DNA of 64,000 nt from contig JBHLNS010000004.1 of the NCBI GenBank assembly GCA_048941285.1, forward strand, positions 2,896-66,895, given 5' to 3'. Below the pieces are notes generated by a model. The model searched no databases and had not been told where the DNA came from. It was given only the letters and a program-made list of their open reading frames with translations. Position numbers and translations under genes: made by a program. Origin of the DNA: Promethearchaeota archaeon (GTDB lineage Archaea > Asgardarchaeota > Lokiarchaeia > Sigyniarchaeales > SOKP01). Positions 13,646-31,799 of this stretch are shown one piece after another (the stretch's first letter is position 1; every line of letters begins with the position of its first letter).

Positions 13646-14005
13646 TTATACAGCTAACGTTTCTTTTAATTTTCTATAAATATTATTTACTTTTGTTCCG
13701 ATCTCTTCAAATAAACTATTTTTTTCCTCTAATTCTTTTGATAAAATTGATAGATCCCCCGTTTCAGTGAATTCATTTAGCTTATTCTCGGTTAAACTCT
13801 GATTTAAAAAGAATGGAAAAAATTCTATTAATTGTTCTATTAGCCTTATTCTAAGTTCAATAATTTGCTTTCTCAATTCTTTTGGAGTAAGATAACCATC
13901 AGCTACTTTTTCAATTCCTTTTTTTAGAATATTTAATTGAGCCTCATCAAATATAATTTTTTCAAGCATTTCATAAAGTAAATCTTTTTTTAGTTCATTC
14001 ATCAT
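13646..14005 (-). CDS. small coiled-coil protein, last gene of the membrane operon
   Basis: Start ATGATG at 14005/14002 overlaps the stop (13995-13997) of the 1278-aa gene. The sequence is heptad-like and Glu/Lys/Leu-rich. Confidence 0.5.
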   Translation of the reverse strand: MMNELKKDLLYEMLEKIIFDEAQLNILKKGIEKVADGYLTPKELRKQIIELRIRLIEQLIEFFPFFLNQSLTENKLNEFTETGDLSILSKELEEKNSLFEEIGTKVNNIYRKLKETLAV

Positions 14006-17000
14006 CGTTGTCCTCCTCATAGATGTAGTGCTGAATTTTAATAAAGAAGTCATATATAAATTGATATACCTCTTTAGCTAAGGATTCTAGATTATAGGTT
14101 TCTAGATTTAGCACATTATATCGTTCTATATAGTCTCTAAGTTCTTGTTTAGTAATTGGAAAATCTTTAATATCTTCTAAAAAAGTAAGGAATTCTTCTA
14201 ACTTATCTGGAGATATTGGCTTCTCTATATTATAATAATGCTTTAAAATATTCATTAAGAAATTTTTAATTAATCCATGTTCTATTTTTAATGCGTTGCT
14301 ATAATCTCCATTATTAATATAATTGTAAATTTTAAATATATCATAGTTAAAATCGCTTAACTCACGCATTAAAGCATCTTTTAAGCTTTGTTTCTGCACA
14401 ATATATTTTCGAGGTTTCTCTTGAAATATTTTAGTTAAACCAGATTTATTCGTAGCTTTTTCTAATATCTCAACATTTATATCTGTTTGTGTTTTCCCCT
14501 TTGTCTTATAATAATCATTTAATGCTTCTTGATATCTCTCCCCTACGGAATAAGAGGTTCTTAATGCTTCTGAACCACTAGCCTTCCGCGGATGATTTTC
14601 AACTAAATATCCATGTTTAATTATTATGTTTAAAAGCTCATCCCGAATTTTTTTAATGTGCTCCTTCCTATTAGTCTTCTGAGATGCTTTTGGATAAATT
14701 ATTTCTTTTAACTGAGTTTTAAGTTTATGTATATAAAGATTCCCAATTTGGTCGATTGTTTGGATCTCATCTAGAAATTTAATTACTTCCTCCAAATATA
14801 TGATATAATGCCCTAGATCTATCTCAAACAATGACTTTTTAGCTTGTTCTAATATTTTTCTTTCTGTAAATTTTAGGTCAAATCCCTGTTGCTCCATAAA
14901 CGATATAATTTTATCATAAGGAAGTGGATTATTTTCCTTAATAGCTTTCCAATCAACGTAAGCTGGAAATGGTTGATCAATATCATCTCTCCTGATTAAA
15001 ACTTCATTATTTTTCATATTCTTGAGATACATAATTTGATAAGTCTGATTTCGAGAACGTGTATAGTATCCAATGCCTTCAATTTCTTGTAAGTTCAATA
15101 GATTTCGCAATATTGAAATATCACGGCTATCTGTAGCTTTCAGTGTTATTACATTATTAAAATGCAGCAAAAAGTTCGCATGAAGATAATGAATTTGGTG
15201 CGCAGAAAAAATTAATCCGAAATTATTCTCAAATAATGGTTTTAAGAAGAGATCTACTTTATCATAATTTCTTTTTAAATCTAGGAAATATGAATCAAAG
15301 AATATATCTATATGCGGAATTATAATAAATTTCTTGAAATGTTCTCCTTGATTTTTAACGTAATGAATAAATTTTGCTAAAATAATGAATGTTAAAAAAA
15401 TTTTTTTATTCAAATCTCTTATTACAGAAAGATCAATGATAACTGTTTTTCGATTCTGTATAAAATGATTGGATAAAATACTATCTTTTTGAATACCTTG
15501 AAAGAAAGATAAATCACCATGTGAAAAATCTGAAAATAAAGAAAGGAGTGTATCACTTATCGGGCTTTTTTCCCAATCACTCTGATTTTGTAATGCCATA
15601 CGAATAGAACCCAAATCCATGTCAGGATTTTTTTGAATAGTATTTCGAAACATTTCAACTGAACGCTCATCTTTCTTAAAAGCTAATCCAAATGCATCGA
15701 ATACATATTCCAAGTAATCGGTATTATGCGGATCGTATGGAATATCTGATTTAGTAGGGTCTATTATGAATGCACTTCCATATTTAAAAATTAATATATC
15801 CTCTTTAAACCTAGAATCTTCAAAATAGTTATATAGCTTTGACCAATCTCCTGTAAAATCAAATATAACTGAAGAAATTTTTGTTTTAACTAATTCCGAA
15901 ACTATTTTCATAGAAATTAAATCTCTATTCTCAGAAGAACCGTTTACGATTAACAATTTCTTTAATTGGCCAAGGGTAAATCCTACGGGGACTTCTGGTT
16001 CTAAAACTTCAGTATTAATAGTATGACCTATTGTGACAAAATTTTCTAAATATAAAGGGGTATTAAATTCTGCAGCAATTTTAGTTTTTGTGCCTTTTTT
16101 GAGAATGTCAACAATCGTTGATAGAGGATACATAGACGTTCCTTGTAACATCACATAATTTAAATGACTACCATTTAATCGAAATAAGTTGTTCTTTATC
16201 GTCGAAAACAGAAATCCTGAAATTAAGTTCTGTCTTTTTAAGTCTTCAATTTCATAACTTTGAAAATTAATATTATATGCTCCTTTTAAAGCATTAACCT
16301 GAATAATTAATTCTTCTTCTAACTCAGAAAAATTTGTAACTTCAAGTAAATCAACAAATTTATAGGAATTGATCGTCATGGTTAAAATACTGTACCACAT
16401 TCCATATCGATATCCTAACCATCGTTCGGCTTCAATTTCATCCTTAATCTGCGTTTCTTCTTTCCAAAGCATCAATCTTTTTTGTTTTTCATTTATGAAT
16501 TTTAAACCTTTCTTATAAAATTCATAAAAGTTAATTGGTTGATTTTTTAAAGTGTAGCTAAATGATATCTTGTGATTGTTTAAGCTTTCAATAAACTTGC
16601 TAAGAAGGCAAAAAGGATTTTGGTATACGTATTTAAGATTGACCATTTTCATTCCAATTAGGACTTGATTGTTTATATGAATAAATAAACTAAAAGGAAA
16701 CTGTTTAACATAATAAAAAAGAACATTTTTGAATGGATTAGTAATTAATATATCATTATCTTCTAATAATCTCGATTTTGTAAATTGAAATAATAATGAT
16801 CTCCACCATATTAATAGAAATGCTAATACAAAACCCAAATTAACTAAAATAATATATAAAAAAAATATGTTAATAGAAAAAAGAACATAATCAATATAAA
16901 TTATTAAAACAGTGATTATTAAAAACTTACCAAGGAAATAACCATTAAATCCTTTCAAATATTCTTTTTTGCTCTCATTACCATTTTGATATGACTCATC

Positions 17001-17831
17001 TTCTATATAAAAAGTCCGTAAGGCATTGATCAAATGATTTCCAGAAAGAAGCATTACCTGAAAATGATGAAAATTACTGACGAGATTGCTTTTTAAATCA
17101 GTAGATTGCTTATTAATAAAATACTGTAAACGATCTAATTTATGCCGTGATAGAATCCCTTTTATGTCATAAAATACAGAAAAATATATTTTTGCTACCC
17201 TCGAATCTAATGAATTAATAGTAATCTCCCTTGAAGCATTTTCTTTAAACAAAGAAATAATGGGTTTTTGAACAATTTGATATGAGTAAGATAATCTTGT
17301 ATTTTTTGAACTTAATGCTTTAATAAATTGATGAATCGCTGAATGAACATTTTCAGGGATCACATTTATCTGAAATATTTTAATAGCAATATGAACAATG
17401 TCTTTTCGATTAGAAATATATAATGTTGTAGTATCTTTTTTGTTATGCCAAAAAATTAAATCCTCAAATGGGTTAAAAGAAACTTTATCTCTAAAAGTAA
17501 AAGGAATGAGATACCTCAATATATAAAACTCATCATAAAACACTACAATAAACAAAATTCCACATATAACACCAATGCTAGTAGATAGAATTAGATTTTG
17601 AGAAAAGATATACATTGAAATAATTAGAAATATAAATAAAATTAATAAAAACCCAGTTTTAACAATTGATAAATTATTATTTGTATCTTTAAATGAAGGA
17701 TTTACTCTCCAGATTTTTAAATATTTTTTCTTCTCTTGATTCTCCTCTATTACTGTATATTTTTTTCTGTTCTTATCATTATCAAAATCATTTATTCCTA
17801 ATGAGGCCTCATAAGTATAGTCTTTTGTCAT
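13995..17831 (-). CDS. giant membrane protein: 2x(TM hairpin + NPF-beta module) + FtsK/HerA/VirB4-like P-loop fold with eroded Walker motifs + helical C-terminal region
   Basis: 1278-aa ORF. It has two TM hairpins, each followed by related modules (NPFEDLIFW..TLYISNRKDIVHIAIKIF / NPFKNVLFY..SLFIHINNQVLIGMKMV). The central region follows the HerA/DUF87 template, but Walker A reads LIVNGSSENRD, Walker B reads FIIIPHIDIFF, and the sensor region reads GLIFSAHQ...NNVITLKATDSRD. Confidence 0.6.
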   Translation of the reverse strand: MTKDYTYEASLGINDFDNDKNRKKYTVIEENQEKKKYLKIWRVNPSFKDTNNNLSIVKTGFLLILFIFLIISMYIFSQNLILSTSIGVICGILFIVVFYDEFYILRYLIPFTFRDKVSFNPFEDLIFWHNKKDTTTLYISNRKDIVHIAIKIFQINVIPENVHSAIHQFIKALSSKNTRLSYSYQIVQKPIISLFKENASREITINSLDSRVAKIYFSVFYDIKGILSRHKLDRLQYFINKQSTDLKSNLVSNFHHFQVMLLSGNHLINALRTFYIEDESYQNGNESKKEYLKGFNGYFLGKFLIITVLIIYIDYVLFSINIFFLYIILVNLGFVLAFLLIWWRSLLFQFTKSRLLEDNDILITNPFKNVLFYYVKQFPFSLFIHINNQVLIGMKMVNLKYVYQNPFCLLSKFIESLNNHKISFSYTLKNQPINFYEFYKKGLKFINEKQKRLMLWKEETQIKDEIEAERWLGYRYGMWYSILTMTINSYKFVDLLEVTNFSELEEELIIQVNALKGAYNINFQSYEIEDLKRQNLISGFLFSTIKNNLFRLNGSHLNYVMLQGTSMYPLSTIVDILKKGTKTKIAAEFNTPLYLENFVTIGHTINTEVLEPEVPVGFTLGQLKKLLIVNGSSENRDLISMKIVSELVKTKISSVIFDFTGDWSKLYNYFEDSRFKEDILIFKYGSAFIIDPTKSDIPYDPHNTDYLEYVFDAFGLAFKKDERSVEMFRNTIQKNPDMDLGSIRMALQNQSDWEKSPISDTLLSLFSDFSHGDLSFFQGIQKDSILSNHFIQNRKTVIIDLSVIRDLNKKIFLTFIILAKFIHYVKNQGEHFKKFIIIPHIDIFFDSYFLDLKRNYDKVDLFLKPLFENNFGLIFSAHQIHYLHANFLLHFNNVITLKATDSRDISILRNLLNLQEIEGIGYYTRSRNQTYQIMYLKNMKNNEVLIRRDDIDQPFPAYVDWKAIKENNPLPYDKIISFMEQQGFDLKFTERKILEQAKKSLFEIDLGHYIIYLEEVIKFLDEIQTIDQIGNLYIHKLKTQLKEIIYPKASQKTNRKEHIKKIRDELLNIIIKHGYLVENHPRKASGSEALRTSYSVGERYQEALNDYYKTKGKTQTDINVEILEKATNKSGLTKIFQEKPRKYIVQKQSLKDALMRELSDFNYDIFKIYNYINNGDYSNALKIEHGLIKNFLMNILKHYYNIEKPISPDKLEEFLTFLEDIKDFPITKQELRDYIERYNVLNLETYNLESLAKEVYQFIYDFFIKIQHYIYEEDNDDE

Positions 17832-17832
17832 A

Positions 17833-18693
17833 TTATTTTCTCTCCTTTTTAAATAGTTTTATATAAATATATATCAAAAGAATGGTGCCTCCAAAGAGAA
17901 ATAGTGTCCAAAAACTTAATTCACTTGAATACATTGAAATGAAACTTAATTCAAAGAGTATTATAATTCCTATGGAAGCAATTAAAATAATTAATCCAAT
18001 GATGAAATATTCATATATATTTTCTATCGAGTTTTGATAATTTATATTGTTTTTGAGAGTACCTTGAATCGTTATTTTTCCTTTCTTATCATTTATTAGT
18101 GAATTTTTGATTGAATGTAAATGGATTGCTGTCTCAAATTGTTGGCTATTTAAATTATGTTGAAGACTTTTTTGAAGAGATAATTCTCGTTCTTTAATTT
18201 TTTGTATAATTAAAGGTCTTAAATTACTGGAATTTCTATCCTTTTTCTTAGCTCTGGGAGTTAAAAAAGAAAAGACTCCTAATGTAGATGTTTCTACGAG
18301 CTCATCATATTCTACGCGTTTATGGAGATTAAGAATATCTATTTTTCTTAAATCATAATATATCTGGAAGGTATTTTTAATGCATTCAAATGGAATGTCC
18401 CCTTTACTTTTAAGAAAAAAGATTTCACACTCTCTTAGGATTTCAATATGTTTTTGGTTGAAAATAGAAATTTTCAAATTTTTCTCAAATATGTCATTTA
18501 TCAACTCCATATATTCAAAAATCTTCTCTCCTGAACCTTTATTTCTTGGTCTAACACCCAGATGAATCCCAATTTCATTAACTTTATTACTGGTTAGGAT
18601 GAAACTCACGACAGCTAACTTTTTATAATTCTTATTTTCTTTGCAAACTTGTATTAAATTCTTCAGTTTAGCATCAATGATTTGTTGCTTCAT
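17833..18693 (-). CDS. membrane-anchored protein (soluble N-domain + C-terminal TM hairpin)
   Basis: 286-aa ORF. The C-terminus (FIIGLIILIASIGIIILF...FWTLFLFGGTILLIYIYI) forms two TM helices. Its stop lies 1 nt upstream of the start of the 1278-aa gene. Confidence 0.55.
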   Translation of the reverse strand: MKQQIIDAKLKNLIQVCKENKNYKKLAVVSFILTSNKVNEIGIHLGVRPRNKGSGEKIFEYMELINDIFEKNLKISIFNQKHIEILRECEIFFLKSKGDIPFECIKNTFQIYYDLRKIDILNLHKRVEYDELVETSTLGVFSFLTPRAKKKDRNSSNLRPLIIQKIKERELSLQKSLQHNLNSQQFETAIHLHSIKNSLINDKKGKITIQGTLKNNINYQNSIENIYEYFIIGLIILIASIGIIILFELSFISMYSSELSFWTLFLFGGTILLIYIYIKLFKKERK

Positions 18694-19418
18694 TTGTTTC
18701 CCTCTATGAATGTTGTTACAATATTATTGATATCATCTTTAGAAATTGGAGAATTAATTTCTTGATCTAACTCTTCTTCGGCGATATATTGATCTAAATC
18801 AATCAACTCTTGAGAATCTTGAATTATTTTGTGCATCTGTTTTTCTGGATTACGTTCTCTCTGAATAAAATTACTTATAGTTTTAAAATAAAAAATGGAG
18901 TAAGGGAAGATAAGAGGAAATGAAATTATTTGTAAAACATAACTAGGACCAATTGAATACCATATAATAACTTCTGAATCATAATTTCTTATGTTTAGAA
19001 GAGGATAGTAAAGTTCGTTTGGTATTAAATACATTAGCGGACAAATAATCAAATAAAATGCTAATAATAATAATATAAATCCGTTCGCATAGCCATATTT
19101 GTTATAAGTTTTAATTACTTTAGCTTTTTCAACATTTTTAAAAATTACGATGTATCCAGAAGTAAGTAATGCAATTAATAATAGGGCATTTATGACAAAA
19201 GGAATTGTAGCATTTACAGGTTTCATTCCTTCATTCAGAGGGGAAGCCTCAGTAAAAGGTGTTGCCCACCCATAAAAAAAATAATAACTCCAAGATACTA
19301 AAAGTTCACTATCAAAGTTATAAATTTGATATGAATACCACTCTAAAAACAATGAAAAAAATAGTAAGGTTAAACCTATTAAATAGATAATTCGAAAGCG
19401 ATGGATAATCTTGCTCAT
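18690..19418 (-). CDS. 4-TM membrane protein with acidic C-terminal tail
   Basis: 242-aa ORF with four hydrophobic helices. It overlaps the next gene by 4 nt (ATGA). Confidence 0.55.
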   Translation of the reverse strand: MSKIIHRFRIIYLIGLTLLFFSLFLEWYSYQIYNFDSELLVSWSYYFFYGWATPFTEASPLNEGMKPVNATIPFVINALLLIALLTSGYIVIFKNVEKAKVIKTYNKYGYANGFILLLLAFYLIICPLMYLIPNELYYPLLNIRNYDSEVIIWYSIGPSYVLQIISFPLIFPYSIFYFKTISNFIQRERNPEKQMHKIIQDSQELIDLDQYIAEEELDQEINSPISKDDINNIVTTFIEGNK

Positions 19419-19424
19419 GATTCC

Positions 19425-21422
19425 CTAATCCTCCAAAAATGAGCTATATTTTTCTACTAATTTATTCTTGAGGCGATTTTCTTTTGAATTCATTGATTGA
19501 AGGTTTTCATTTGATTCGAAAAGCTCTAAGCCTTCAATTTTTCTTTTACTTAATTTATTTCTAAGAAAATTTTCAGCATTTTTCTGCTCTATTTTATTTA
19601 TAATATTGAAATCGTTGTCTTTTTCAACACACTCGAAAACAAACTGTTCCATAAATCTTGTGCTTAGCTCTTCATTAATTAAGATGAGATTTGTCTCATC
19701 AAAATCTAATTTCTTTTGATAATAAGGTGTGGCAAATTCATATTGGAGTTCTGATTTCTGTTTATAAAGTCTTAGATAAATATATGCTATTAGAACAATA
19801 TAAAACGAAATTACACCATAACCTAAATTAATTAGGAAAGATAAAACTGAATACGCTTGGAATAATAATACTAATAAAAAAAAAAAACCATAAAGCATAA
19901 AGGGAGTTGAATATTTTCGTAAGTCTTTAATAAATTTATTTGAAGCTTTACAATGTAGATCCAATGCGTTCTTCTGTTCGCTATAAGTTTCTATTAGAAA
20001 ATGCTTTTGGTCAATGTATTGCAGGAAATCCTGTAGCTGGGATAGTGATAAAATATGTATATTTAATTGTTTTTGGTAAGCAAATGGAACAAGCTTTTCA
20101 GCAAAACCTACATTATTTCGATGTATTAATAATGGTTCAATTAAGATTTTATATTGAAGTGGTCCAGAGCGAAAAAAAAGTTTTTTGTGTGTAAAAGTTT
20201 TTTCCAGAAAAAGGTTGATATTTAAATATTTAGATAAATATCTAAAAAATCTTCCTTCATTTAACATATCTTCAAGAAGAACATCCTGGATATTTTTAAA
20301 TGCTTTTAAATATGATTGAGATAGTCTTTCTAACCTAAAATTCTGTTCAGTATAATTCCCTATAGATCGATATTTAATTGCATTACCTGATACAATAATT
20401 GAACCATTTAAAGAACTAATCTTTATAGGGATGATTAATATCAATTCCAAGAATTCTTTTACTCGGATGAGTTTAACTGCTAGGAGATCTATTCCAGTAA
20501 ATATCGTTCTTAATTCCGGACTTTTTTTAATTATAACAAATTCAGATAATTCAAGTTCTTTTGCAGTTTCCAAATAAATTTCCTGTAATTGAGAAGAATT
20601 TAAAGATTCACTAGAGATTGTATCTTGTTCCTGGACTTTAAGATTAGATTGTCGTAATAATTCTGGAGGGACAACTAGGAAGTTATTTATTTCCGATTCT
20701 TGGGATAATTCGGGATTATTTTTTTCTATTTTTTTTTCAGAAACATTAAAATTGCTAATTGATGCGCCATTATTATCAATCTCTTCGTAATCAAACTCCT
20801 CAAGGTTATCGTCATACCTTTCAAAATTCTCCAAACTATTTTCTAAAGGTTTAATATCAGATGTATCAATCTGTGGAGCATACCACTCTTCAGTTTCAGG
20901 TTTTTCAAATTTTCTTTCAAACCATCTATGTGATCCTTCCCCTGATTTTGATTCTTTGGTGTTGTCCAGATTTATCCTAATATTGCTTTTTTCTGGAAAA
21001 TCGTTTAATTTTTTTAGCCTTACATGCTGCTTCGCGTTTTCTATAAATTTTTGGGCTTTAACTATCCCAATACCATTAATCTGAGTTATTTTCTTTGGTG
21101 AAGAATATGCTAATTCTGAGATTGAACTAATACCAATTTCAGCAAGCTTTTCAGCAACTTTTAAACCAATACCATCTATTATTGTAAGGGATTCTCTTTT
21201 TATACTTGGATTTAAAGAGTTTTGTTGCGACACATTTGAATTAAATATATCAAATTTATCGATCCATTCACAATTCTTTTGCAATTTAGCTTCCCTAAGG
21301 CCATTATTAGATATTTTTAGCGCTTGATCTACATCATTTGCTTGAAAGGCTTCTTGTGCCATTTTGTAGTAGAACTTCAAATCCGATTTTTTCTGCATTA
21401 AACCATCTTGAGTATCAGTCAT
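19425..21422 (-). CDS. membrane protein with N-terminal TPR-like helix pair and tandem helix-hairpin-helix DNA-binding motifs
   Basis: 665-aa ORF with HhH motifs IDGIGLKVAEKLAEIGISSISEL and INGIGIVKAQKFIENA. An acidic linker follows, then a TM hairpin (FMLYGFFFLLVLLFQAYSVLSFLINLGYGVISFYIVLIAYIYL). First gene of the operon. Confidence 0.6.
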   Translation of the reverse strand: MTDTQDGLMQKKSDLKFYYKMAQEAFQANDVDQALKISNNGLREAKLQKNCEWIDKFDIFNSNVSQQNSLNPSIKRESLTIIDGIGLKVAEKLAEIGISSISELAYSSPKKITQINGIGIVKAQKFIENAKQHVRLKKLNDFPEKSNIRINLDNTKESKSGEGSHRWFERKFEKPETEEWYAPQIDTSDIKPLENSLENFERYDDNLEEFDYEEIDNNGASISNFNVSEKKIEKNNPELSQESEINNFLVVPPELLRQSNLKVQEQDTISSESLNSSQLQEIYLETAKELELSEFVIIKKSPELRTIFTGIDLLAVKLIRVKEFLELILIIPIKISSLNGSIIVSGNAIKYRSIGNYTEQNFRLERLSQSYLKAFKNIQDVLLEDMLNEGRFFRYLSKYLNINLFLEKTFTHKKLFFRSGPLQYKILIEPLLIHRNNVGFAEKLVPFAYQKQLNIHILSLSQLQDFLQYIDQKHFLIETYSEQKNALDLHCKASNKFIKDLRKYSTPFMLYGFFFLLVLLFQAYSVLSFLINLGYGVISFYIVLIAYIYLRLYKQKSELQYEFATPYYQKKLDFDETNLILINEELSTRFMEQFVFECVEKDNDFNIINKIEQKNAENFLRNKLSKRKIEGLELFESNENLQSMNSKENRLKNKLVEKYSSFLED

Positions 21423-21666: not shown

Positions 21667-21909
21667 GTGATTTGTCCTTTATGTAATGATAAGATAATTA
21701 TAGGCGTTGAAACTCAATTTACAAATAGAATTAATACAGATATCTATTTTCCACATATTCATTTACATGGAGATCCGCTTCATGCTTTAATATGTTATAT
21801 TAACTCTGAATTAAAAATAAGGAACCTAGGAGTTGTTAAGAGTATTGAGATTTCAAGAGATTCTCATACTTTTGGAGAGATAATGAAAAAATGGACTAAT
21901 CCATACTAA
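21667..21909 (+). CDS. small Cys/His protein upstream of the helicase gene
   Basis: 80-aa ORF with a GTG start and CPLC...HIHLHGDPLH. The frame stays open upstream to 21601 without a canonical start. It lies 21 nt before the helicase gene. Confidence 0.4.
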   Translation: MICPLCNDKIIIGVETQFTNRINTDIYFPHIHLHGDPLHALICYINSELKIRNLGVVKSIEISRDSHTFGEIMKKWTNPY

Positions 21910-21930: not shown

Positions 21931-24468
21931 ATGGTATTAACAGATTTTACTGACAAAATTAAAAAAAAAGAGTTAGAAACTGAGGCTGAAAATGAGATCT
22001 TCAAATATGTATCTGATAAACGCATCCTAAGAGTGCTTTTTGAAGGAAGAATCTTTAGTTTACGGCAGATTCAAATTGATACTATAAAAATGGGATTATT
22101 TTTTCGAAAATCATTTTTAATAAGTGCACCTTCCGGGAGCGGAAAGACTCTAATTGGTGAATTATGTGCTATTAATAATATCTTTCAGAAATTTGGAAAA
22201 TCAATTTATTTAGTCCCATATAAGGCTTTAGCTACAGAAAAGTATTCTCATTTTAAGAAGAGCTATAGTCGATACGGAATAAAGATAGAGCTTTCTATAG
22301 GTGATTATGATGTGGATGACTCTAAATTAGAAAAAGCAGATTTAATAGTCACCACTTATGAAAAAATGGATTCAATTCTTAGAAATTTCTATGATAAAGA
22401 GTGGATTTTTAATATTTCGACTATAATAATTGATGAAATTCATATTATTGGTGAATCTGACAGAGGACCACGATTAGAGTCCTTAATAGTCAGGCTAAAT
22501 GAATTCCTTCATAATCCACAGATAATTGGACTTTCAGCAACTATAGCAAATGCAGAATTTTTTAATTCGTGGCTTTCTTCGCTTGGAAATAAAACAACTT
22601 TAATTAAATCAGATATTCGTCCTGTACCACTCCATTACAGAGTCGAAATTACCCAAAATAAAGATTCAACTATAAAAAGGTTTATTAGATCCACACTTGA
22701 AAAAAATGGACAAGTACTTATCTTTGTAAACCGTCGGAAAGGCGCACAGAAGGTAGCAGAGAATATTAAAACATTAGTTTGCAAATTTCTCGAAGAAAAT
22801 GAATTAAATATTTGCATGTCCCTTGAAAAAAGATTATCTTCAATTAAAGGAGGACATCGTGAATTGAAAAAGATCATAAAATCTGGTGTTGCATTTCATC
22901 ATGCAGGTTTACTTCCAAAGGAGAGAAAAATTATTGAAGATAACTTTAGAAAGCGCATTATTAAAGTAATCTGCTGTACTACAACACTCTCAGCCGGGAT
23001 AAATACCCCTGCTCGTGTTGTTATCTTGAAAGATTTTAAGAAGTATGTAACTTCTGGCCATAATATTAAGAACTTCTCAGGATATTTCGAAAATGGGGAT
23101 GGTTTTTCTTATTTTAAACCTTTTTCTGCAAACGAAGTATTTCAAATATTAGGGAGAGCTGGAAGGCCTGGACTTGATTCTGTTGGTTATGGAATAATTT
23201 TGGTTAAAAATATTGAAGAAAAAATGTGGGTTGAAGATCGATTTTTCCAAAATCATGTACTTAAAGACGTTTCAAAACCTAAATATAATGATCTCATTTC
23301 AGGTTTAAACAAGATAAATACTCTAAAAGAACAGGTATTATTAAGAGTTTTTGAGGAAAAAAAAATCACATTAGAACAGTTAAAACAATTTTTCGAAAAA
23401 ACCTATTTCTGGTATGGAATTAAAAGTAAAATGAAGGAACAGAAAATTCCTATTGAACAATTACTGATGATAAAGGAGATTACCCCCATCAATATTTTAA
23501 AGCTTCATACTGATGCTAATACAGTAAAAGAGTTAAAAGATAGTAATTACCAAATTAAATTAACCAATCTTAATGGTTCAAATATCTCTGCATATGTAAA
23601 AACTTCATTTGGGGTATATTATTGCCAATTTGATATTGAAACAGGAATTCAGTGTACATGTGGATTTAAGAATGGCATTTCTGATAACTTCGCAAATGAT
23701 GAATTTTCTTTCGAGTTTTGTAAACATATTACATCTTTTTTACTCTACTCCGTCCAGCTTCCCGATGCTAAATTTCAAAAGTATGTTGATTCAATCATTC
23801 CAAAATCAGTAAAAAACCAATATATCTTATCATATCTTTTTGAGAAAGGATTAATTTTAAAAGATAAGAAGGGATTAATCAGATGTTCTCATTTTGGCAA
23901 ATTAATAATCAGATTATATTTATACCCAGTTTCTGGTGTGATGATTAGGTATAAACTTGAAAATAATGAAATAAATACTTTTCAAGATTTGATTAAAGAA
24001 GCATTTGACATTTTGAAGGCAGAATTCCGCGTCAAAGACAATAAAATGCTACAGCCTATTTTAGAGTGGGCAGATGAGGAACCGATTGACCAAATTTTAG
24101 ATAAATATAATATTATGGCGGGAGATTTATTTTCTGTAAGAGATAATTTAGAACGAATTATCATATTTATCGGAATTATTGCTGGTAATTTAAGTACAAA
24201 CGGGATTGATCTCCAAGATAAGTTAATCAGAATCGCGGAAATGTGTGAAACTCTAAAAATCCGATTACACTATGGTATTCATGAAGAATTATTTGATCTA
24301 GTTTTAAGATTAGGTGACGTAGCACGCGTAAGAGCAAGAATATTATATAAAGCAGGATATCATACAGCTTCACAATTAAAAAAGGAAAATCCTTATGTCT
24401 TAAATCAAAAAACTGGCCTAGGTATAAATTTATGTAAAAAAATCATTATAAATAAGAAATCGAAATAA
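21931..24468 (+). CDS. Ski2-like/Hel308-family superfamily-2 DNA helicase with inserted SWIM zinc finger
   Basis: Walker A APSGSGKTLIGE, DEIH box (IIDEIH), SAT (LSAT), motif VI QILGRAGRPG and a C-terminal HhH-like RARILYKAGYHTASQL. At 845 aa it is about 130 aa longer than typical Hel308. The insert contains CTC-x21-CKH. Confidence 0.8.
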   Translation: MVLTDFTDKIKKKELETEAENEIFKYVSDKRILRVLFEGRIFSLRQIQIDTIKMGLFFRKSFLISAPSGSGKTLIGELCAINNIFQKFGKSIYLVPYKALATEKYSHFKKSYSRYGIKIELSIGDYDVDDSKLEKADLIVTTYEKMDSILRNFYDKEWIFNISTIIIDEIHIIGESDRGPRLESLIVRLNEFLHNPQIIGLSATIANAEFFNSWLSSLGNKTTLIKSDIRPVPLHYRVEITQNKDSTIKRFIRSTLEKNGQVLIFVNRRKGAQKVAENIKTLVCKFLEENELNICMSLEKRLSSIKGGHRELKKIIKSGVAFHHAGLLPKERKIIEDNFRKRIIKVICCTTTLSAGINTPARVVILKDFKKYVTSGHNIKNFSGYFENGDGFSYFKPFSANEVFQILGRAGRPGLDSVGYGIILVKNIEEKMWVEDRFFQNHVLKDVSKPKYNDLISGLNKINTLKEQVLLRVFEEKKITLEQLKQFFEKTYFWYGIKSKMKEQKIPIEQLLMIKEITPINILKLHTDANTVKELKDSNYQIKLTNLNGSNISAYVKTSFGVYYCQFDIETGIQCTCGFKNGISDNFANDEFSFEFCKHITSFLLYSVQLPDAKFQKYVDSIIPKSVKNQYILSYLFEKGLILKDKKGLIRCSHFGKLIIRLYLYPVSGVMIRYKLENNEINTFQDLIKEAFDILKAEFRVKDNKMLQPILEWADEEPIDQILDKYNIMAGDLFSVRDNLERIIIFIGIIAGNLSTNGIDLQDKLIRIAEMCETLKIRLHYGIHEELFDLVLRLGDVARVRARILYKAGYHTASQLKKENPYVLNQKTGLGINLCKKIIINKKSK

Positions 24469-24485
24469 AATAATACCTTTTACGC

Positions 24486-24761
24486 ATGGATTCTAAAATT
24501 GAAAAGAAAAACAATATAAGGATACAAGATTCACAAATTTCTGACAAAAATTCAAGAAACTCAGAGAATAAATCTGAAAAAATAGTAAATGAAAACATCG
24601 AAAGTTTATGTGATGAAAATCTCACTACTCTTAAGAAAATCCATGCAATTTTATTAAATTGCCTTAATCTTTCCAAACAACAGAAGCTTGAGTTTTGTGA
24701 AAGTGAAAGGTATTTTATGAAATTATATCTAAATAAGTTACAAAATAAAAATAAAAAATAA
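24486..24761 (+). CDS. hypothetical low-complexity protein
   Basis: 91-aa ORF 17 nt after the helicase stop, Asn/Lys/Ser/Glu-rich. Coding status is uncertain. Confidence 0.3.
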   Translation: MDSKIEKKNNIRIQDSQISDKNSRNSENKSEKIVNENIESLCDENLTTLKKIHAILLNCLNLSKQQKLEFCESERYFMKLYLNKLQNKNKK

Positions 24762-24911
24762 AATCAAACTTGAATTGCTATTAAAGCTTTTATCCAATTG
24801 GTGTCTATAATGATCATCCTTAAAACTGCAATTTCATTCCAATTGATTTTTTATATAGATAATAGGGTCATTATTATAGAAAAATTATAATTTTAACAAA
24901 AGGTTTTAATC

Positions 24912-25130
24912 ATGAGTTCTCAATCATTAGAAAAAGCGGAATTAATACTCCTAAATTTTGAGACCTATAAAGAGGACTCTATAAATTTTAATGAGATTAT
25001 AATTCCTTTTTCTAGGTTTGGCATATCTAAAAGTCCAGCATATATTTATGAAGGGCTTGAGAATATTGCATTCAAAGAAAGACATCCATTTTATAGATCG
25101 ATTCTTTTAGACGAGTTTGTTGAATTATGA
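24912..25130 (+). CDS. small conserved protein, tandem paralog 1
   Basis: 72 aa. Shares IIPFSRF..........Y.G.E.I.F.ERHP.Y......EF with ORF 25223..25462. Confidence 0.5.
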   Translation: MSSQSLEKAELILLNFETYKEDSINFNEIIIPFSRFGISKSPAYIYEGLENIAFKERHPFYRSILLDEFVEL

Positions 25131-25168
25131 GATTAAGTCAAAAAAAATCATAAAATCTCATACGACTC

Positions 25169-25188
25169 AATATTTTTCTTTATATAAT
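25169..25188 (+). promoter_or_regulatory. BRE/TATA-like promoter element
   Basis: AATATTTTTCTTTATATAAT, ~35 nt upstream of the ATG at 25223. Confidence 0.4.
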
Positions 25189-25222
25189 TTTGATTTTATC
25201 CTGTATTAAAAGGTGAAAAAAT

Positions 25223-25462
25223 ATGAGCTCAAAATCATCAGAAAAAAAACACCAAAAAATACCAATTCAAGATTTAGAGCAACCTCTGAAATTAACTAAT
25301 GCTGTCATTCCCTTTTCTAAGCTTACTATACCTGAGAAATTTATCTATTACGGATATGAAAGAATTCCCTTTCATGAAAGACACCCTGTTTATCAAACGC
25401 TCATAAAGAGAGAATTTGCTGAAGGAATTAAAGATTTTATAAAAATAATTAAAAAGAAATGA
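25223..25462 (+). CDS. small conserved protein, tandem paralog 2
   Basis: 79 aa, paralog of 24912..25130 (VIPFSKL...YGYERIPFHERHPVYQTLIKREF). It has its own TATA-like element and a GGTGA Shine-Dalgarno-like site. Confidence 0.5.
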   Translation: MSSKSSEKKHQKIPIQDLEQPLKLTNAVIPFSKLTIPEKFIYYGYERIPFHERHPVYQTLIKREFAEGIKDFIKIIKKK

Positions 25463-25475
25463 ATTCGATTTGGAT

Positions 25476-26000
25476 TTAAACCTTTAATTTATAGTAATAA
25501 TCACCATTTATTCGTTTCAAAACGCCTTGTTTCTTTAGTTTTCTTGTTAATAATTTTACTTCTGATTTCGGAATATTGTAGTTTTCTGCCATTATTTCAA
25601 TAATATAGTAAGGAAAAGTATTATAAGCTTTAGATAAGTTATATAGCATTTGTTTTAATTTCTCAGAATAATTATAATCATTAAAATCAATATTAATTGC
25701 ATCTTTTTGACTTTTTTCCCTTCCAACTACTCTGAAATCTTCTGATGTTCTAAATACAGGTTCTGAACCCAACTCTTTTATTGCTAACTCATTCTGCTTC
25801 TTTTTCACTAATTCTATTGCATTGGATATACCTTTTATAATTTCACTTCGTTCTATTACGTTATTAACTTTATGAATATAACCACACCTAATACATTTCT
25901 TCGTCTTTTGAGTACTTTTTGCATAAATATAGTTATGACATTTTCTACAAGAAAATATCAAATAAGGAGTTTCATCTTTTTTCCAAATTATATCTTCCAA
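25476..26000 (-). CDS. zinc-ribbon protein (DUF1922-like) with C-terminal winged-helix-like region
   Basis: CRKCHNYIYAKSTQKTKKCIRCGY ribbon. The C-terminal KLLTRKLKKQGVLKRINGDYYYKL is wHTH-like. TTG start 6 nt after the Hef stop. Confidence 0.5.
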   Translation of the reverse strand: MEDIIWKKDETPYLIFSCRKCHNYIYAKSTQKTKKCIRCGYIHKVNNVIERSEIIKGISNAIELVKKKQNELAIKELGSEPVFRTSEDFRVVGREKSQKDAINIDFNDYNYSEKLKQMLYNLSKAYNTFPYYIIEIMAENYNIPKSEVKLLTRKLKKQGVLKRINGDYYYKLKV

Positions 26001-26006
26001 AGTTGC

Positions 26007-28178
26007 CTATTCCTCCTGAGGATTTTCTAGAATATTTTTTATAATAAAATATAATTCTTCTTCATTATCGATAACTATTGCCTGAATTTTTTGTTTTTTG
26101 GCAAATTCTTGTATTTTTCTCGCAATAACTCTCTTCTCTCCCTCGATATTTTGAGAAAAATCGATAAAGTCAAAGACCATGATGAAAAGTGAAGAGATTT
26201 GCTTAAAATCATTAATATCTCTTATTAGGTTTACTAAATTAAAACCTTTAGGATCGTAGATCTGGATAAGAATCTTGTTATGAATGATTATATGATGATC
26301 AGATTCTATAATATCATAAAAAATATTATCACTTTGGAGTCTTTTTCTCAGCCCGAATTTCATGGGTAAAAATTTACTTATTTTTAAATTATTTGTTATA
26401 TTGGGAGGATCAATTTTAGTCGATTCTTGCATAAATGATTCGATTTTAGATTGGTGCTGTCTTGGTTCTATTACTTTTCTCCGCAATTCCACTAGTTTAG
26501 GCTCTTTCTTAGATTTTTTAATGGTTTTCTCATTTTTAATAATAGCCATCTGATCATTGACGGGGCTATATTTATATGAATCTTGTAATTGTTTAGGATT
26601 TTTCAAATGTAAATTCATCCTTTTGAGTTTATTCATTGCAATTCTTAAATATATTTCGTCTCGCGTGTCATTACTATAAAGAATAACGACTTTACCCTCA
26701 CGATGTCTTGCTGTTCTTCCTTTCCGCTGAATGAATCTTACATCTGAAGCAACTACATCATAAAATATAACTAAATCACATTCAGCAATATCCAGCCCTT
26801 CTTCACCGACGTTTGTCGAAATGAGAACATTATATTGCCCCTCTTTAAAGTTATCTAGAATTTCTATTTGCTTTTTTTGGGACATTCCTTTATCATCAAA
26901 TGATTTCGTGGTTTGCCCCACAAATCTTACTGCATTAATTGAAGGAATTTTTTGAAGTTTTTTTGTTATATTCTTAACGGAATTACGCAACTTCACAAAC
27001 ACTAAAATTCGAGAATGAGGATTATTCTTCAATTCTTCTAAAATAATCTTAACCAAAACATAATACTTCGGATGAATCAACATTTCAGGAGAAAATTCAA
27101 CATTTTTCTTTAATTCTAAAAATATGCGATATAATCGCCCATCTGATGACAATATTTTAGTGGCTTTCGAACTACTTTTCTTCTTTGCGTCTCGATGAAG
27201 TTTATTAAAATAATCTAATAATACATCGAGCCCTTGCTGCTCTACTAATTCAAGCATATGAAATAAAATTAAAGCCTGTGCATTAATCGATAAAGCGCTA
27301 TAAATTCCTGTTTTGTCCCCATTGCTTTTTAACTCATTTACTAATTCTGAATTTAACTTTAATAAATCTTTCCTGATAACTTTTGTAAGTAATTGTTCTC
27401 CTTTTATTTCTAAAAAATTGAGTTGAGAAAGGTAATGCAATCGTTCCTCTAATACAATCGTGAGCAATTTATATACATCTTTCATTAGACTGGTTAAATC
27501 GACTCCAATTTTGTATATATCCATTGGTTTGAGATAATTCTTTACATCTTCGTCTTTTCGTGTTCTGATATGAATATTTTCTATAGGAATATGCAAATTA
27601 TTACATAATACGGTAATTTTATTTTTTGAAGCTCCAGGTGAAGCAGTCAGACCTAATATTATTCCGTCGGGATTATGATCGACAAATTCATCAGCAATCA
27701 TCGTATAAGGATAATCTCCAGTCCCATGATGAGCTTCATCAAAAATCACTAAAGCAGTATTTGAGAGGGAATACTTTTGATTCACTAAATCGTTTCTTAG
27801 AGTCTGAGGAGTGTAAAATAATATTTGATTTTGATGAAAAATATCAATCCTATGCTCAGGAAGTACTTTTCCTGTAAGAATTGCATATTTATTTTCAGGA
27901 ATCTTAAGAAATTTTAAGAATGTATGATAATGCTGATCTATTAATGGCCTGGTAGGGGCAAGGATAATAACTTTACTATCAACTGGGAACATTTCTATTA
28001 TTTTACCAGCAACAAGAACCGCAATTATCGTTTTACCCAACCCTGTAGGAAGTACAACTAACGAGTTCTTTCCAGCACATTGTTCTGCGATTTTTTCTTG
28101 GTATTCTCTAACCTCTAATTCACTCGAGTCTAATATCGATGCGCTTTTTTCTACAGTTAGCCTTATCTCACCCATCAT
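26007..28178 (-). CDS. hef: Hef/FANCM/Mph1-family SF2 helicase with C-terminal ERCC4-like domain lacking catalytic residues
   Basis: PTGLGKT Walker A, DEAH (FDEAHH), TASPG and motif VI QRKGRTAR. The C-terminal ~135 aa keep the XPF/ERCC4 topology, but I could not find the GDY/ERK residues. There is no (HhH)2 tail. Confidence 0.75.
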   Translation of the reverse strand: MMGEIRLTVEKSASILDSSELEVREYQEKIAEQCAGKNSLVVLPTGLGKTIIAVLVAGKIIEMFPVDSKVIILAPTRPLIDQHYHTFLKFLKIPENKYAILTGKVLPEHRIDIFHQNQILFYTPQTLRNDLVNQKYSLSNTALVIFDEAHHGTGDYPYTMIADEFVDHNPDGIILGLTASPGASKNKITVLCNNLHIPIENIHIRTRKDEDVKNYLKPMDIYKIGVDLTSLMKDVYKLLTIVLEERLHYLSQLNFLEIKGEQLLTKVIRKDLLKLNSELVNELKSNGDKTGIYSALSINAQALILFHMLELVEQQGLDVLLDYFNKLHRDAKKKSSSKATKILSSDGRLYRIFLELKKNVEFSPEMLIHPKYYVLVKIILEELKNNPHSRILVFVKLRNSVKNITKKLQKIPSINAVRFVGQTTKSFDDKGMSQKKQIEILDNFKEGQYNVLISTNVGEEGLDIAECDLVIFYDVVASDVRFIQRKGRTARHREGKVVILYSNDTRDEIYLRIAMNKLKRMNLHLKNPKQLQDSYKYSPVNDQMAIIKNEKTIKKSKKEPKLVELRRKVIEPRQHQSKIESFMQESTKIDPPNITNNLKISKFLPMKFGLRKRLQSDNIFYDIIESDHHIIIHNKILIQIYDPKGFNLVNLIRDINDFKQISSLFIMVFDFIDFSQNIEGEKRVIARKIQEFAKKQKIQAIVIDNEEELYFIIKNILENPQEE

Positions 28179-28791
28179 TAATCACCATAAATGTATGATT
28201 ATCTATAGTTATGTTTTGAAACTGTTTATTGCTTTTATTGTAAGAAATAATCACTTCTCCTAATTTTAATCCTAAGTTAGAAGGGTATACTACACAATTT
28301 CCTTTTGTTTCAAACAAATATGGGTGTGTGTTCCTTAATTTCTTAACCTTTGATAATAATTCAGAGCCATTCTTCACAATATCAAACCCCTTGCCTCTAT
28401 TAACATGCTTAAAGATATAGATAATATCGTTTAATAGTTTTATATGGGAATTTGATATATAGATTGTTGGTGGGATTTCAATTTTTTCGTATTCATCCTT
28501 TTTATCAGTAATTAGATAAACTTGATTATTTGCACGATATTTTCGTATTTGGTAATTTTTAAAAACATTTTCAAACTTTTCTTGAAAATTTAGTAATAAG
28601 GATATAATTTCGTCTGTCTGAGACTGAGGGATTCCCAACAGTTTTATTAGTTTGCTAAAATTGAACTTTCTATCATAAAAGTTCTCGAACTTTCCTAGAT
28701 AATCCACCATTTGGTTTAATACTCTAAGAATCTTTCGAAATTGCTCTGTATTATAATCATTAGTATTATTAGTATCTGAGGCTAAAGTCAT
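28168..28791 (-). CDS. hypothetical protein, possible HTH + beta-rich (WYL-like?) regulator, co-transcribed with hef
   Basis: Overlaps the hef start by 11 nt. HTH-like FSKLIKLLGIPQSQTDEIISLL. The domain guess is weak. Confidence 0.45.
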   Translation of the reverse strand: MTLASDTNNTNDYNTEQFRKILRVLNQMVDYLGKFENFYDRKFNFSKLIKLLGIPQSQTDEIISLLLNFQEKFENVFKNYQIRKYRANNQVYLITDKKDEYEKIEIPPTIYISNSHIKLLNDIIYIFKHVNRGKGFDIVKNGSELLSKVKKLRNTHPYLFETKGNCVVYPSNLGLKLGEVIISYNKSNKQFQNITIDNHTFMVINDG

Positions 28792-28837
28792 CAAATATTA
28801 ATAATTTATTGAATGAATAAAAAGGAAAAATTTAGCT

Positions 28838-31750
28838 TTAATTATTTTTAGATTCTTTTTTCAACTTTTCTAGCTGCTTTGATGATATTATAAAAACTAT
28901 TCCAGGTACAGCAATAAATATTATCGTTAATGGAATTGCTCTAGCAATATCCTTCTTATAGCTTTCTGAGATTTGATTTACATCAAAGAAAACACTTTTA
29001 ACATTAATTGGGGAACCATAGATCCCATCATTGATAAAAAGTTCGAATTTGTATTCTCCAGTCATACTTGGATTATAAATAATGCTGAACATACTATAAT
29101 CAGAAAAATCTTCATGAATTGCGTGAATCTCATCTAAATATTCATTATTTCTATAAATTTGAGCATAGGATCTTCCAGAAGTTAATGGAAACTTCTCATA
29201 ATTAGCCAAAATTGAAACATTGATCTTAAAGAGTAAACCATTCAAATCGGAATGGTAATTTATTTCACATTCTAAAGTATAGTTAGTTGAAAATGAGATA
29301 TAAAGCTCTGCCTTTACCTGCATTCCCTCATATGCTCTTAGATATCCTTCGATTAGCGGGTAACAATCTGAGTTTATTGGAATTGGGATGTTATACACAT
29401 ATGAATTATTAGAGAGTTTTGAAAAAACAAAGCTCCCAATCTGTTCACTTTCAAATTTGAATGTAATATAAGTACCAAAATCCCTCAATATAAGATTGTA
29501 GAGTGATACTTCCATATGATTTAAACCCCCTAATTGGCAAGTATCAGAATGTCGTGCGTCAATTCCGATATCACTAGTTCGTGCCATTTCACAAATCCAG
29601 AAAAAGATCTCTTGATTCAGTATTTCTTTATCTGTAGTAAAATAGAATTCATTAGAATTATCTGAGAAAATATCCTGAACTAGCGCTTGAATCTTATGAA
29701 AATTAAACTCAATATTTAAATTTAGAAGTTCTGAAAGCTTATAGCTGTAGTATATGTTTTTAATATTGGAATAGTTAAGATTTGTTTCAACATAATTTTT
29801 AATTTTCTGGCTGTTTTTATTAAATAAGTTGAGCACTTTCAACACATAGGTCATAAAATAAGTGGTTTTTAAGATAGTTGCAACGTCATCAGCATATTTT
29901 GGACTAAAGTAAAGCATTGTAGAGGTTTCAATCAGATTTCTATCGATATAATTATATATTGCAGTTATATCAAAACCAATTTCAGCAAAATTCAAGCCGA
30001 GATAATTCCCAAGAAGTTCTAAACATTTTATAGCATAATAAGTATAATCGCAATAGATTTTGTTATTAATAACCTCAGATCTATCCTTAGTATATTTTAA
30101 AATGGAAGTGAATCCGCCAAAAGTATCATAATATGTTGTATTTAAAAATTGAGTTTTTACTATATCATTCATTAAATCCATTAAATCAAAAGAATTAGCA
30201 AAATCATCTAATTTGAAAAGCTTCTCTAAAGATTCTAAGGCATAGTATGTAGATTGATGAGAATTTATTTGATCAATCTTATTTATGTAAATCTTATGTC
30301 CCGAAGTATAAAACTCTATTGGATATGAACGAAACCACTCAATCATTGTATCTTGTCTTAGATATCCATTAAAATATCGCGATATATCATCAGGCGGGTA
30401 ATCTCTATATGAATTTTTAATAGCTCCATACAATTTTTGGATATTCAGATCCGAAATTCTCGTATATAAATCAAAGGAACTAACAACAGTATGGATAAGA
30501 TTCATAGAATTATAGTCTTCAGATAAGAGTGAAAAGGCTATATAAGATTGGTAATATAAAGTAGCATTCCCAATGAGACTTCTATCACCTTTTGATAATT
30601 GGAATATTTCATTTGTATTATACAATGAACGAATAATTTGATATGTATCTATAAGTTCATGGATAGCAACTGTGGTTGACTGATCCCAGTTCCCTAAAGA
30701 GTTACGATGGTTTAGAATAAAAGAAACAGTTTCAGTTGTATTTATCCCTATAAAACCGGTAATTACTGAAAGTTCTAAACCTATCGACGTTGCAACAATA
30801 TTAGTGTAATTCAATCCATAATCTAAGGCAGATATCCGAAAATAATGAGAATCTGGATCATAGAGATAACTAAGAAATTGGTAAAAATCTACTTCATTAA
30901 TACTAGACACCATTCCAAATACTTCTAATGTTTTTATACAATAATATGAAGAAATGAGATTGGGCTCATAATGAAATAAGAGAGAATCGAAACTTTCATC
31001 TTCATCATTTTCAAATCCTCCTACAGTCCAACCCATTCCTTCTGTAAGTTGGAGAGCGTTAATAAAAGATATAATACTCGCTCTCTGCGAAGAATATCCA
31101 AACCAGTCGTCCATCAATAAATCTAATGTGATCACAGCAAAATAAGTATTATCTGCCGTTGCTATTTTATATCCGTCTTCTAAATCTGCATTATACTGGC
31201 GTCCAATAAACCCACCGGTTGAGGGATTAAAACAACTCCAGATAAAATCTATAATTTCTGAGACATCGATTAAATATAACGCATCTAACAATTCTAAAGA
31301 AAGAATCGCATAGCATGTTACCTCCAATACCGTGCTCAATGGGAAATATGACTTTGTAAAATCGGTATCCAAATATCGATATGCTAAAGTGTCCATAAAG
31401 TGAGTACTATCATCTTCATAGTGATCCATGATATAATTTATTATCTTAGATTGGTTTATCTCATGTAATTTTCCCACCCTACTTAGCGTATACAAAGCAT
31501 AATAAGTTGCTTGTAAAGAAGGTTCATAGATTTGGGGAAAATATCCAGCATCATAATAATCTGCCACTTTAGAATTAAATACATTATCTATGAGTCTCTT
31601 ATTACTCACCTCGGACATTTGAGTGATTTCATTAAAATCACTTAAAGAATAATTACTTGAACTATTGGTAAAAGGCTGAGTGTAAATAATATTACTAAAA
31701 AATAAAATTCCAATAACACTACAAATGAATATGACGGGTTTCAATTTCAT
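28838..31750 (-). CDS. large cell-surface protein with prenyltransferase/terpene-cyclase-like alpha-alpha toroid repeats, N-terminal signal/anchor and C-terminal TM anchor
   Basis: At least nine repeats of the type QATYYALYTLSRVG, EVTCYAILSLELLD, DNTYFAVITLDLL, SSYYCIKTLEVFG, QSTYYALESLEKL and DYTYYAIKCLELLG. The C-terminal beta-rich region is followed by a TM helix and a basic tail. The ATG at 31750 is preferred to the TTG at 31762. Confidence 0.55.
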   Translation of the reverse strand: MKLKPVIFICSVIGILFFSNIIYTQPFTNSSSNYSLSDFNEITQMSEVSNKRLIDNVFNSKVADYYDAGYFPQIYEPSLQATYYALYTLSRVGKLHEINQSKIINYIMDHYEDDSTHFMDTLAYRYLDTDFTKSYFPLSTVLEVTCYAILSLELLDALYLIDVSEIIDFIWSCFNPSTGGFIGRQYNADLEDGYKIATADNTYFAVITLDLLMDDWFGYSSQRASIISFINALQLTEGMGWTVGGFENDEDESFDSLLFHYEPNLISSYYCIKTLEVFGMVSSINEVDFYQFLSYLYDPDSHYFRISALDYGLNYTNIVATSIGLELSVITGFIGINTTETVSFILNHRNSLGNWDQSTTVAIHELIDTYQIIRSLYNTNEIFQLSKGDRSLIGNATLYYQSYIAFSLLSEDYNSMNLIHTVVSSFDLYTRISDLNIQKLYGAIKNSYRDYPPDDISRYFNGYLRQDTMIEWFRSYPIEFYTSGHKIYINKIDQINSHQSTYYALESLEKLFKLDDFANSFDLMDLMNDIVKTQFLNTTYYDTFGGFTSILKYTKDRSEVINNKIYCDYTYYAIKCLELLGNYLGLNFAEIGFDITAIYNYIDRNLIETSTMLYFSPKYADDVATILKTTYFMTYVLKVLNLFNKNSQKIKNYVETNLNYSNIKNIYYSYKLSELLNLNIEFNFHKIQALVQDIFSDNSNEFYFTTDKEILNQEIFFWICEMARTSDIGIDARHSDTCQLGGLNHMEVSLYNLILRDFGTYITFKFESEQIGSFVFSKLSNNSYVYNIPIPINSDCYPLIEGYLRAYEGMQVKAELYISFSTNYTLECEINYHSDLNGLLFKINVSILANYEKFPLTSGRSYAQIYRNNEYLDEIHAIHEDFSDYSMFSIIYNPSMTGEYKFELFINDGIYGSPINVKSVFFDVNQISESYKKDIARAIPLTIIFIAVPGIVFIISSKQLEKLKKESKNN

Positions 31751-31799
31751 TTTCTCTACCAAAAACTGTTTCTTGTATGTTTAACTACCATTCTTACTA

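Follow-up and report, generated by a model that had tools for sequence, protein, structure and literature searches.

Tandem helix-hairpin-helix (HhH) domains, or (HhH)2, are found in several known proteins. ComEA is a membrane-anchored competence DNA receptor whose (HhH)2 domain binds DNA without sequence preference. The same two-HhH fold, of ~55-60 residues, is found in the N-domain of RadA/Rad51 and in topoisomerase V (Topo V). In eukaryotes, LEM2, Heh1 and MAN1 tether chromatin at the inner nuclear membrane. In archaea, the Ced and Ted systems of Crenarchaeota are chromosomal gene sets, connected with DNA repair, in which a VirB4/HerA-like protein is joined by several small membrane proteins (PMC9905601; PMC11868833). 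Here we describe an archaeal locus that recalls each of these systems in part. It lies in a 64,000-nucleotide stretch, hereafter the window, of the Promethearchaeota archaeon assembly GCA_048941285.1 (contig JBHLNS010000004.1, positions 2,896 to 66,895 of the forward strand). Gene A (19425-21422, minus strand, as called from its open reading frame) codes for a 665-residue HhH-bearing membrane protein and stands first in a compact operon, A-B-C-D-E, whose genes abut or overlap and which was not found described in a full-text literature search. The explanation that we favor, with about an even chance of being right, is that A serves to tether DNA to the cytoplasmic side of the membrane, as part of an A-E complex that contains the putative pseudo-ATPase D.

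Residues 82-131 of A make up a canonical and unexceptional (HhH)2 domain. The corresponding peptide, IDGIGLKV...FIENAK, is encoded at nt 21030-21179, within the interval 21017-21195 in which the original prediction had recognized a unit of two HhH motifs. A profile search bore this out: Pfam HHH_5 (PF14520) matched residues 79-131 (E=1.5e-9; 38.6 bits for a gathering score of 27). The ComEA model gave no significant match. Both GhG hairpins are kept (GIG at residues 84-86 and 117-119) and are near-invariant across 35 homologues; at least two such hairpins are present in 87 of the 98 HhH segments of the A family. The domain is also basic, with a net charge of +4 in the window protein and a family median of +3. 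Together with a basic C-terminal extension it spans residues 76-137 (21012-21197, minus strand), as delimited by Pfam, PDB profiles, weak Foldseek matches and charge.

By profile comparison, the nearest relatives of this domain are the RadA/Rad51 N-domain and Topo V. A family profile built on the 35 homologues matched the (HhH)2 domains of Topo V (1.2e-9), RadA/Rad51, haloarchaeal L32e and NusA in the PDB, and had no match there beyond profile positions 40-210, that is, beyond the HhH region and its immediate flanks. The RadA models of NCBIfam cover A partially, over their first 60-70 positions (E=2.3e-9; 36.8 bits for a cut-off of 259), and Rad51, the C-terminal repeat of NusA and others likewise gave partial matches. 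Foldseek, run on the AlphaFold model of A, retrieved the Rad51/RadA N-domain weakly (best E=1.2e-2, none at E<=0.001). The likeness to the RadA N-domain that had been proposed is confirmed; GhG hairpins and a net basic charge are part of it. Unlike RadA/Rad51 and Topo V, however, A has neither a RecA-type ATPase core nor a topoisomerase domain, and its HhH motifs are carried on a membrane protein by way of a disordered acidic linker.

The orientation of this module with respect to the membrane sets A apart from ComEA. No hydrophobic segment was found within the first 60 residues of any homologue and no signal peptide was detected. The sole transmembrane segments of A lie ~375 residues after the HhH motifs and form a helical hairpin (residues ~508-553; 19764-19901, minus strand; defined by hydropathy and AlphaFold2) around a tight conserved turn, LINLGYG. 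Kyte-Doolittle windows reach 2.37 in this region, where AlphaFold2 models two long antiparallel helices (486-520 and 524-564). Lys and Arg residues occur on both flanks of the hairpin (medians 3 and 2) and the turn is uncharged across the 35 homologues. Because there is no signal-like segment, both flanks carry K/R and the turn is uncharged, both termini of A, and hence the (HhH)2 domain, are predicted to be cytoplasmic, so that the HhH motifs would face the cell interior.

This predicted topology disfavors an outward-facing role and is the main reason for rejecting the analogy with ComEA that the original prediction had drawn. That A might take up external DNA from the outer side of the membrane would be suggested by the fact that ComEA, too, joins a membrane anchor to an (HhH)2 domain. 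In ComEA, however, this domain is C-terminal and lies outside the cytoplasmic membrane, whereas that of A is N-terminal and predicted to be cytoplasmic. A has no signal peptide or N-terminal anchor, its HhH motifs stand far ahead of transmembrane segments with basic flanks, and the ComEA model (TIGR01259) scored E=0.47, with 10.5 bits for a cut-off of 152.35. Such a role is hardly credible. The broader proposal of DNA capture at the membrane is plausible on the inner face, where it is backed by the fold predicted for protein D and by a Hel308-like neighbor (see below); on the outer face it is disfavored.

The remaining architecture of A was read from an AlphaFold2 model built on the 35 homologues (mean predicted local distance difference test, pLDDT, of 72) together with hydropathy. 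Upstream of the HhH motifs, the model and a profile delineate a three-helix bundle with one TPR-like motif (residues 12-68; 21219-21389, minus strand), with helices at 15-27, 31-47 and 51-68 and a pLDDT of ~85. Its profile retrieved consensus TPR proteins with ~8-10 bits per repeat; the idea of an MIT domain was rejected, as the profile gives generic single-TPR similarity only. Downstream, a disordered acidic linker of ~115 residues (138-253; 20664-21011, minus strand; pLDDT <50) leads to an alpha/beta core domain (254-485; 19968-20663, minus strand; pLDDT ~90 over about 254-480). The linker varies in length and sequence, with a family median of 158 residues and a net charge of -14; in the window protein the net charge is -15 over residues 143-270. 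The acidic linker, the globular domain and the transmembrane hairpin that had been described are thus all borne out. Within the otherwise variable linker, a short motif, WFERKF (residues 167-172; 20904-20921, minus strand; family form [WL]F[EDQ]xK[FLY]), occurs in 24 of 130 family members and could be a docking site.

After the hairpin, conserved sequence blocks define C-terminal helices predicted to be cytoplasmic (residues 560-665; 19428-19745, minus strand), with an LFE motif. Three helices are modeled in this region, which is conserved and helical at 576-632 and closes with a terminal helix (647-664) ending in KYSSFLED-COOH; the ending FL[ED][ED] is found in 91 of the 130 family members. 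Both this conserved peptide and the TPR-like bundle have the look of elements that dock other proteins. Beyond the (HhH)2 domain and the generic TPR-like bundle, A matches nothing in Pfam, NCBIfam, PDB or BFVD. For the core, this holds for sequence searches of the PDB and for Foldseek at E<=0.001 against PDB and BFVD with the whole protein as query; Pfam searches at a relaxed threshold with 20 core sequences gave no consistent match, only sporadic weak ones to transmembrane-hairpin families such as DUF2207_C. A PD-(D/E)xK nuclease was also considered for the core, with D312 at a strand start and P332-I-K334 in the next strand, and was rejected: the second acidic residue is missing and no tool supports it.

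The operon that A heads is specific to Asgard archaea among the loci found. The five genes occur in the same order and on the same strand in 40 of the 41 loci with enough downstream sequence, all of them Asgard, and the lone exception is a second A paralogue in a genome that also holds a complete operon. Gene B (18690-19418, minus strand; collinear in 40/41 loci) codes for 242 residues with four transmembrane segments, as read by eye from the sequence, and a conserved acidic C-terminal motif, LDLDxxIAEEEL. Gene C (17833-18693, minus strand), which overlaps its neighbors at the start and stop codons, codes for 286 residues that read as a soluble N-terminal domain followed by a C-terminal transmembrane hairpin. 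Gene E (13646-14005, minus strand; present in 40 loci) codes for a small helical protein of ~119 residues; its probable start is Met17 of a 135-residue open reading frame, near which the N-termini of six homologues align. B and C have no match in Pfam, NCBIfam, PADLOC or PDB, and E has none in Pfam, NCBIfam or PADLOC. A common origin of the A core, B, C, E and the repeats of D was rejected, with hhalign probabilities <7%.

The largest partner is protein D (1278 residues; 13995-17831, minus strand), to which AlphaFold2, Foldseek and hhalign assign two transmembrane hairpins (four transmembrane helices), an internally duplicated region and a domain with a predicted fold of FtsK/HerA/VirB4 type. 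Each of its 62 homologues that has a named source is Asgard and annotated as 'hypothetical', and D has no sequence-level match in PDB, Pfam, NCBIfam or PADLOC. The AlphaFold2 model covers residues 350-1278 with a mean pLDDT of 70.5. Its Foldseek matches included HerA (4d2i, E=8.6e-11), HerA-NurA, TrwK/VirB4 (7o43, E=9.1e-10), HerA defense complexes, and the DndH C-domain and VirB4 C-terminal domain with template-modeling scores of 0.63-0.64 (VirB4, 0.64). D would thus have the ASCE P-loop fold of FtsK/SpoIIIE, HerA and VirB4, and its N-terminal transmembrane segments are placed as in FtsK and VirB3-VirB4 fusions.

D nevertheless differs from the FtsK-HerA superfamily at both ATPase motifs and in its duplication. 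A strand-loop-helix at the P-loop position (residues 624-647; 15891-15962, minus strand) reads LLIVNGSSENRD. In the alignment of 35 D homologues, this Walker A site has the form N-G-x4-R-[D/E] (N in 33/35, G and R in 35/35), the Lys-Ser/Thr of the P-loop being replaced by Arg-Asp/Glu in every one, and GxxxxGK[ST] occurs nowhere in these sequences. The Walker B site, hhhhD-L-S or more precisely (V/I)(I/V)(I/V)D-L-S, keeps an invariant Asp and has Leu in place of the Glu, again in 35/35. A Gln in the motif FGLIFSANQ, read as sensor-like, is kept in 33 of the 35. The combination of an FtsK/HerA/VirB4 fold and degenerate motifs suggests that D is a protein of this type in which ATP is most likely no longer hydrolyzed in the canonical way; given the loss of the canonical residues, it is probably a scaffold or ring, not a motor. 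The N-terminal half is duplicated (~55-295 against 296-560), each unit consisting of a transmembrane hairpin and a domain of ~190 residues (hhalign probability 97%, E=6e-11, 210 aligned columns).

Two further features of D are recorded here. Residues ~1055-1100 (~14530-14670, minus strand; LIKHGYLVENH...ALRTSYSVG) are modeled as helices followed by a beta-hairpin, winged-helix-like but with low pLDDT. A weak PABC/MLLE match in this region (E=0.017) was the sole near-match in the PDB sequence searches of the A core, B, C and D, and the region may be a second nucleic-acid- or peptide-binding module. The turn of a membrane hairpin of D, LVNLGF (residues ~330-336), resembles the LINLGYG turn of A (19806-19826, minus strand), both fitting (I/V)-N-(L)-G; despite this common motif, comparison of the A and D profiles detected no significant homology.

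The predicted fold of D brings in a different explanation, in which A-E would be a machine for DNA import or export across the membrane between cells, like Ced/Ted or a type IV secretion system, with D as the VirB4-like component, B and C as the channel and A as a cytoplasmic DNA receptor. The matches of D to TrwK/VirB4 and to the VirB4 C-terminal domain agree with it, as does the presence of a DNA-repair helicase next to A. Ced and Ted also pair a VirB4/HerA-like ATPase with polytopic and two-transmembrane-segment proteins, and serve DNA repair (PMC9905601). The likeness to A-E is however one of general composition: the ATPase motifs of D are degenerate in all 35 homologues, so that no motor is evident, and its HerA scores at least equal those of VirB4. 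Sizeable extracellular loops were seen in B only, as read by eye from the sequences. Pilin-like or VirB6-like homology of B and C was not detected in Pfam, NCBIfam or PDB, although the known Ced/Ted components are themselves recognizable only by profile-profile or structure comparison (PMC9905601). Conversely, the published component lists of Ced and Ted contain no HhH protein (PMC9905601; PMC11868833), whereas A-E has one. A transfer machine is on balance unlikely.

Several HerA defense complexes rank among the top Foldseek matches of D, which would also be compatible with an antiviral system based on HerA, like Sir2-HerA or DUF4297-HerA. The PADLOC scan of A-E was however empty, the operon showed neither an effector nuclease nor a Sir2, the ATPase motifs of D are degenerate, and the chromosomal context is near-constant across Asgard lineages, unlike that of patchy defense islands. 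GC content is uniform as well. A mobile element or defense island was rejected on the empty PADLOC scan, the near-constant context and the uniform GC, which point instead to a core cellular system; a defense function is very unlikely.

Full-length homologues of the whole protein number 58, and every one with a named source is Asgard. A profile of the part without HhH (residues 255-665) retrieved only 230 cluster representatives among 1.84 billion, a compact family, and all 150 listed matches, full-length proteins or fragments, extend to or near the C-terminal end. With three peptide patterns, which divergent members can escape, 52 A loci were found in a set of 185,579 species represented by one genome each. 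The named ones are all Asgard metagenome-assembled genomes (MAGs), with Lokiarchaeia-, Thor-, Hermod-, Hod- and Odin-labeled MAGs among them, and three loci are labeled only 'uncultured archaeon'; taxon labels were taken from record titles and source names. Among 96 representatives of the A family, 68 have an (HhH)2 domain, 53 the N-terminal bundle and 11 neither. NYN domains (Zc3h12a-like RNase) were found in the variable N-terminal region of several members, with HhH (P0018) or without (P0199, P0202, P0205). The conserved unit of the family is thus the core, the hairpin and the tail, and the N-terminal region is a swappable module, usually of DNA-binding type and otherwise often a nuclease.

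Upstream of A, on the plus strand, lies a gene for an 845-residue Hel308-like helicase (21931-24468), so assigned by NCBIfam. Its best matches in that database are Hel308-type DNA helicases (E=4.3e-120 and 1.2e-98), both under the equivalog cut-offs. The gene is divergent from A and within 4 kb upstream of it in 31 of 34 loci, and the best tblastn segment is 69-90% identical to its counterparts in related loci. This conserved divergent helicase suggests a link of the operon to DNA repair or recombination. The protein apparently contains a Cys/His insertion (CQFDIETGIQCTCGF...FCKHITSF, ~residues 565-610), SWIM-zinc-finger-like, which Pfam did not report at E<0.01. Just upstream of the helicase, a conserved open reading frame (21667-21909, plus strand) codes for an 80-residue protein that has a CPLC motif and a run rich in His; it is kept in 26 of 52 related loci and matches no family.

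In the Lokiarchaeia-type genome GCA_013375485.1, a second copy of A (P0042; locus L006, contig JABXKB010000011.1) adjoins the helicase without B-E; an Arf-family GTPase and a protein that matches NYN faintly lie on its flanks. The other A copy of this genome (P0056, L007) has B-E and no helicase neighbor. The wider gene order is conserved in four loci (L002, L007, L008 and L009), where a large prenyltransferase-like protein, a ~200-residue protein, a DEAD helicase with RNA_helicase_helical, DUF1922, small open reading frames and the Hel308-like gene succeed one another; positions 24486-31762 of the window contain open reading frames of corresponding sizes in the same relative order.

From the domain identities, the operon and its distribution, which are shown here, and from the topology and the fold of D, which are predicted, we infer that A binds DNA and that A-E assemble physically, with a biological role at the membrane as follows. 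A would be the nucleic-acid-binding subunit of an Asgard membrane complex A-E, anchored by its tight helical hairpin so that its two ends are cytoplasmic. A flexible acidic tether of ~115 residues would display its basic (HhH)2 domain, which is of the type that binds duplex DNA independently of sequence, and A would most likely keep DNA of the cytoplasm close to the membrane on its inner side, beside D. In other DNA-binding proteins, acidic tails modulate DNA binding; the acidic linker beside the basic domain of A could modulate binding in a similar manner.

Several observations weigh against this explanation. HhH motifs are absent from 28 of the 96 family representatives (~29%), so that the core function does not require DNA binding by the HhH module. 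Proteins and not DNA are bound by some (HhH)2 domains, the acidic repeats of NusA for example, and the NYN variants of the family suggest that the substrate may be RNA. No known fold matches the conserved core of A, the pseudo-ATPase assignment of D derives from a loss of motifs in a model of moderate confidence, and the adjacency of A to the Hel308-like gene need not imply functional coupling. The first three of these points would also fit an RNA-handling complex, or an (HhH)2 domain that serves as a protein-docking module, with A recruiting RNA or a partner to a processing platform at the membrane. NYN RNase domains recur in the same variable region, NusA-type repeats are among the matches of A, and the Ski2 group, Hel308 included, contains RNA helicases. 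Yet both hairpins of A keep the canonical GhG of DNA-binding (HhH)2 domains, while the NusA repeats are degenerate at this position; the best matches of A are RadA/Rad51 and Topo V, and those of its neighbor are Hel308 DNA helicases. Handling of RNA or docking of proteins is regarded as improbable, and attachment of DNA to the inner face of the membrane is retained as the preferred explanation.

A parallel in layout is eukaryotic. LEM2/Heh1/MAN1 and A have in common a small helical DNA-binding module at the N-terminus, a long disordered linker, two membrane helices with both ends on the same side (that of the chromatin in LEM2/Heh1/MAN1, predicted to be the cytoplasm in A) and a conserved C-terminal domain. 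The resemblance is by analogy only: a test for LEM-family membership detected no sequence or fold relation, A has an (HhH)2 domain and not LEM/HeH, it contains a large core domain in addition, its transmembrane helices are joined by a very short turn, and its C-terminal region of three modeled helices has no PDB match, as against the MSC winged helix. Membership of A in the ComEA, RadA or LEM families was rejected, the defining features of each having been tested for and not found. In its most far-reaching form, the explanation would make A-E a platform specific to Asgard archaea and inherited vertically, by which the chromosome is attached to the membrane from the inside, built on an ATPase-dead descendant of an FtsK/HerA/VirB4 pump, working with Hel308 and forming a functional counterpart of the LEM2/Heh1 tethers; as a whole, this version is tentative and rather doubtful.

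Even if the idea of a tether is wrong, the locus holds five conserved families without annotation (the A core, B, C, D and E), and with D the FtsK-HerA superfamily would gain a branch that is embedded in the membrane and degenerate in its catalytic motifs. Asgard archaea are the closest known relatives of eukaryotes. With membrane proteins found here in Asgard archaea only, a DNA-binding-type module predicted to face the cytoplasm, a predicted ring-type pseudo-ATPase and a repair helicase as neighbor, the operon is a concrete candidate for how DNA became organized against membranes in the lineage leading to eukaryotes.

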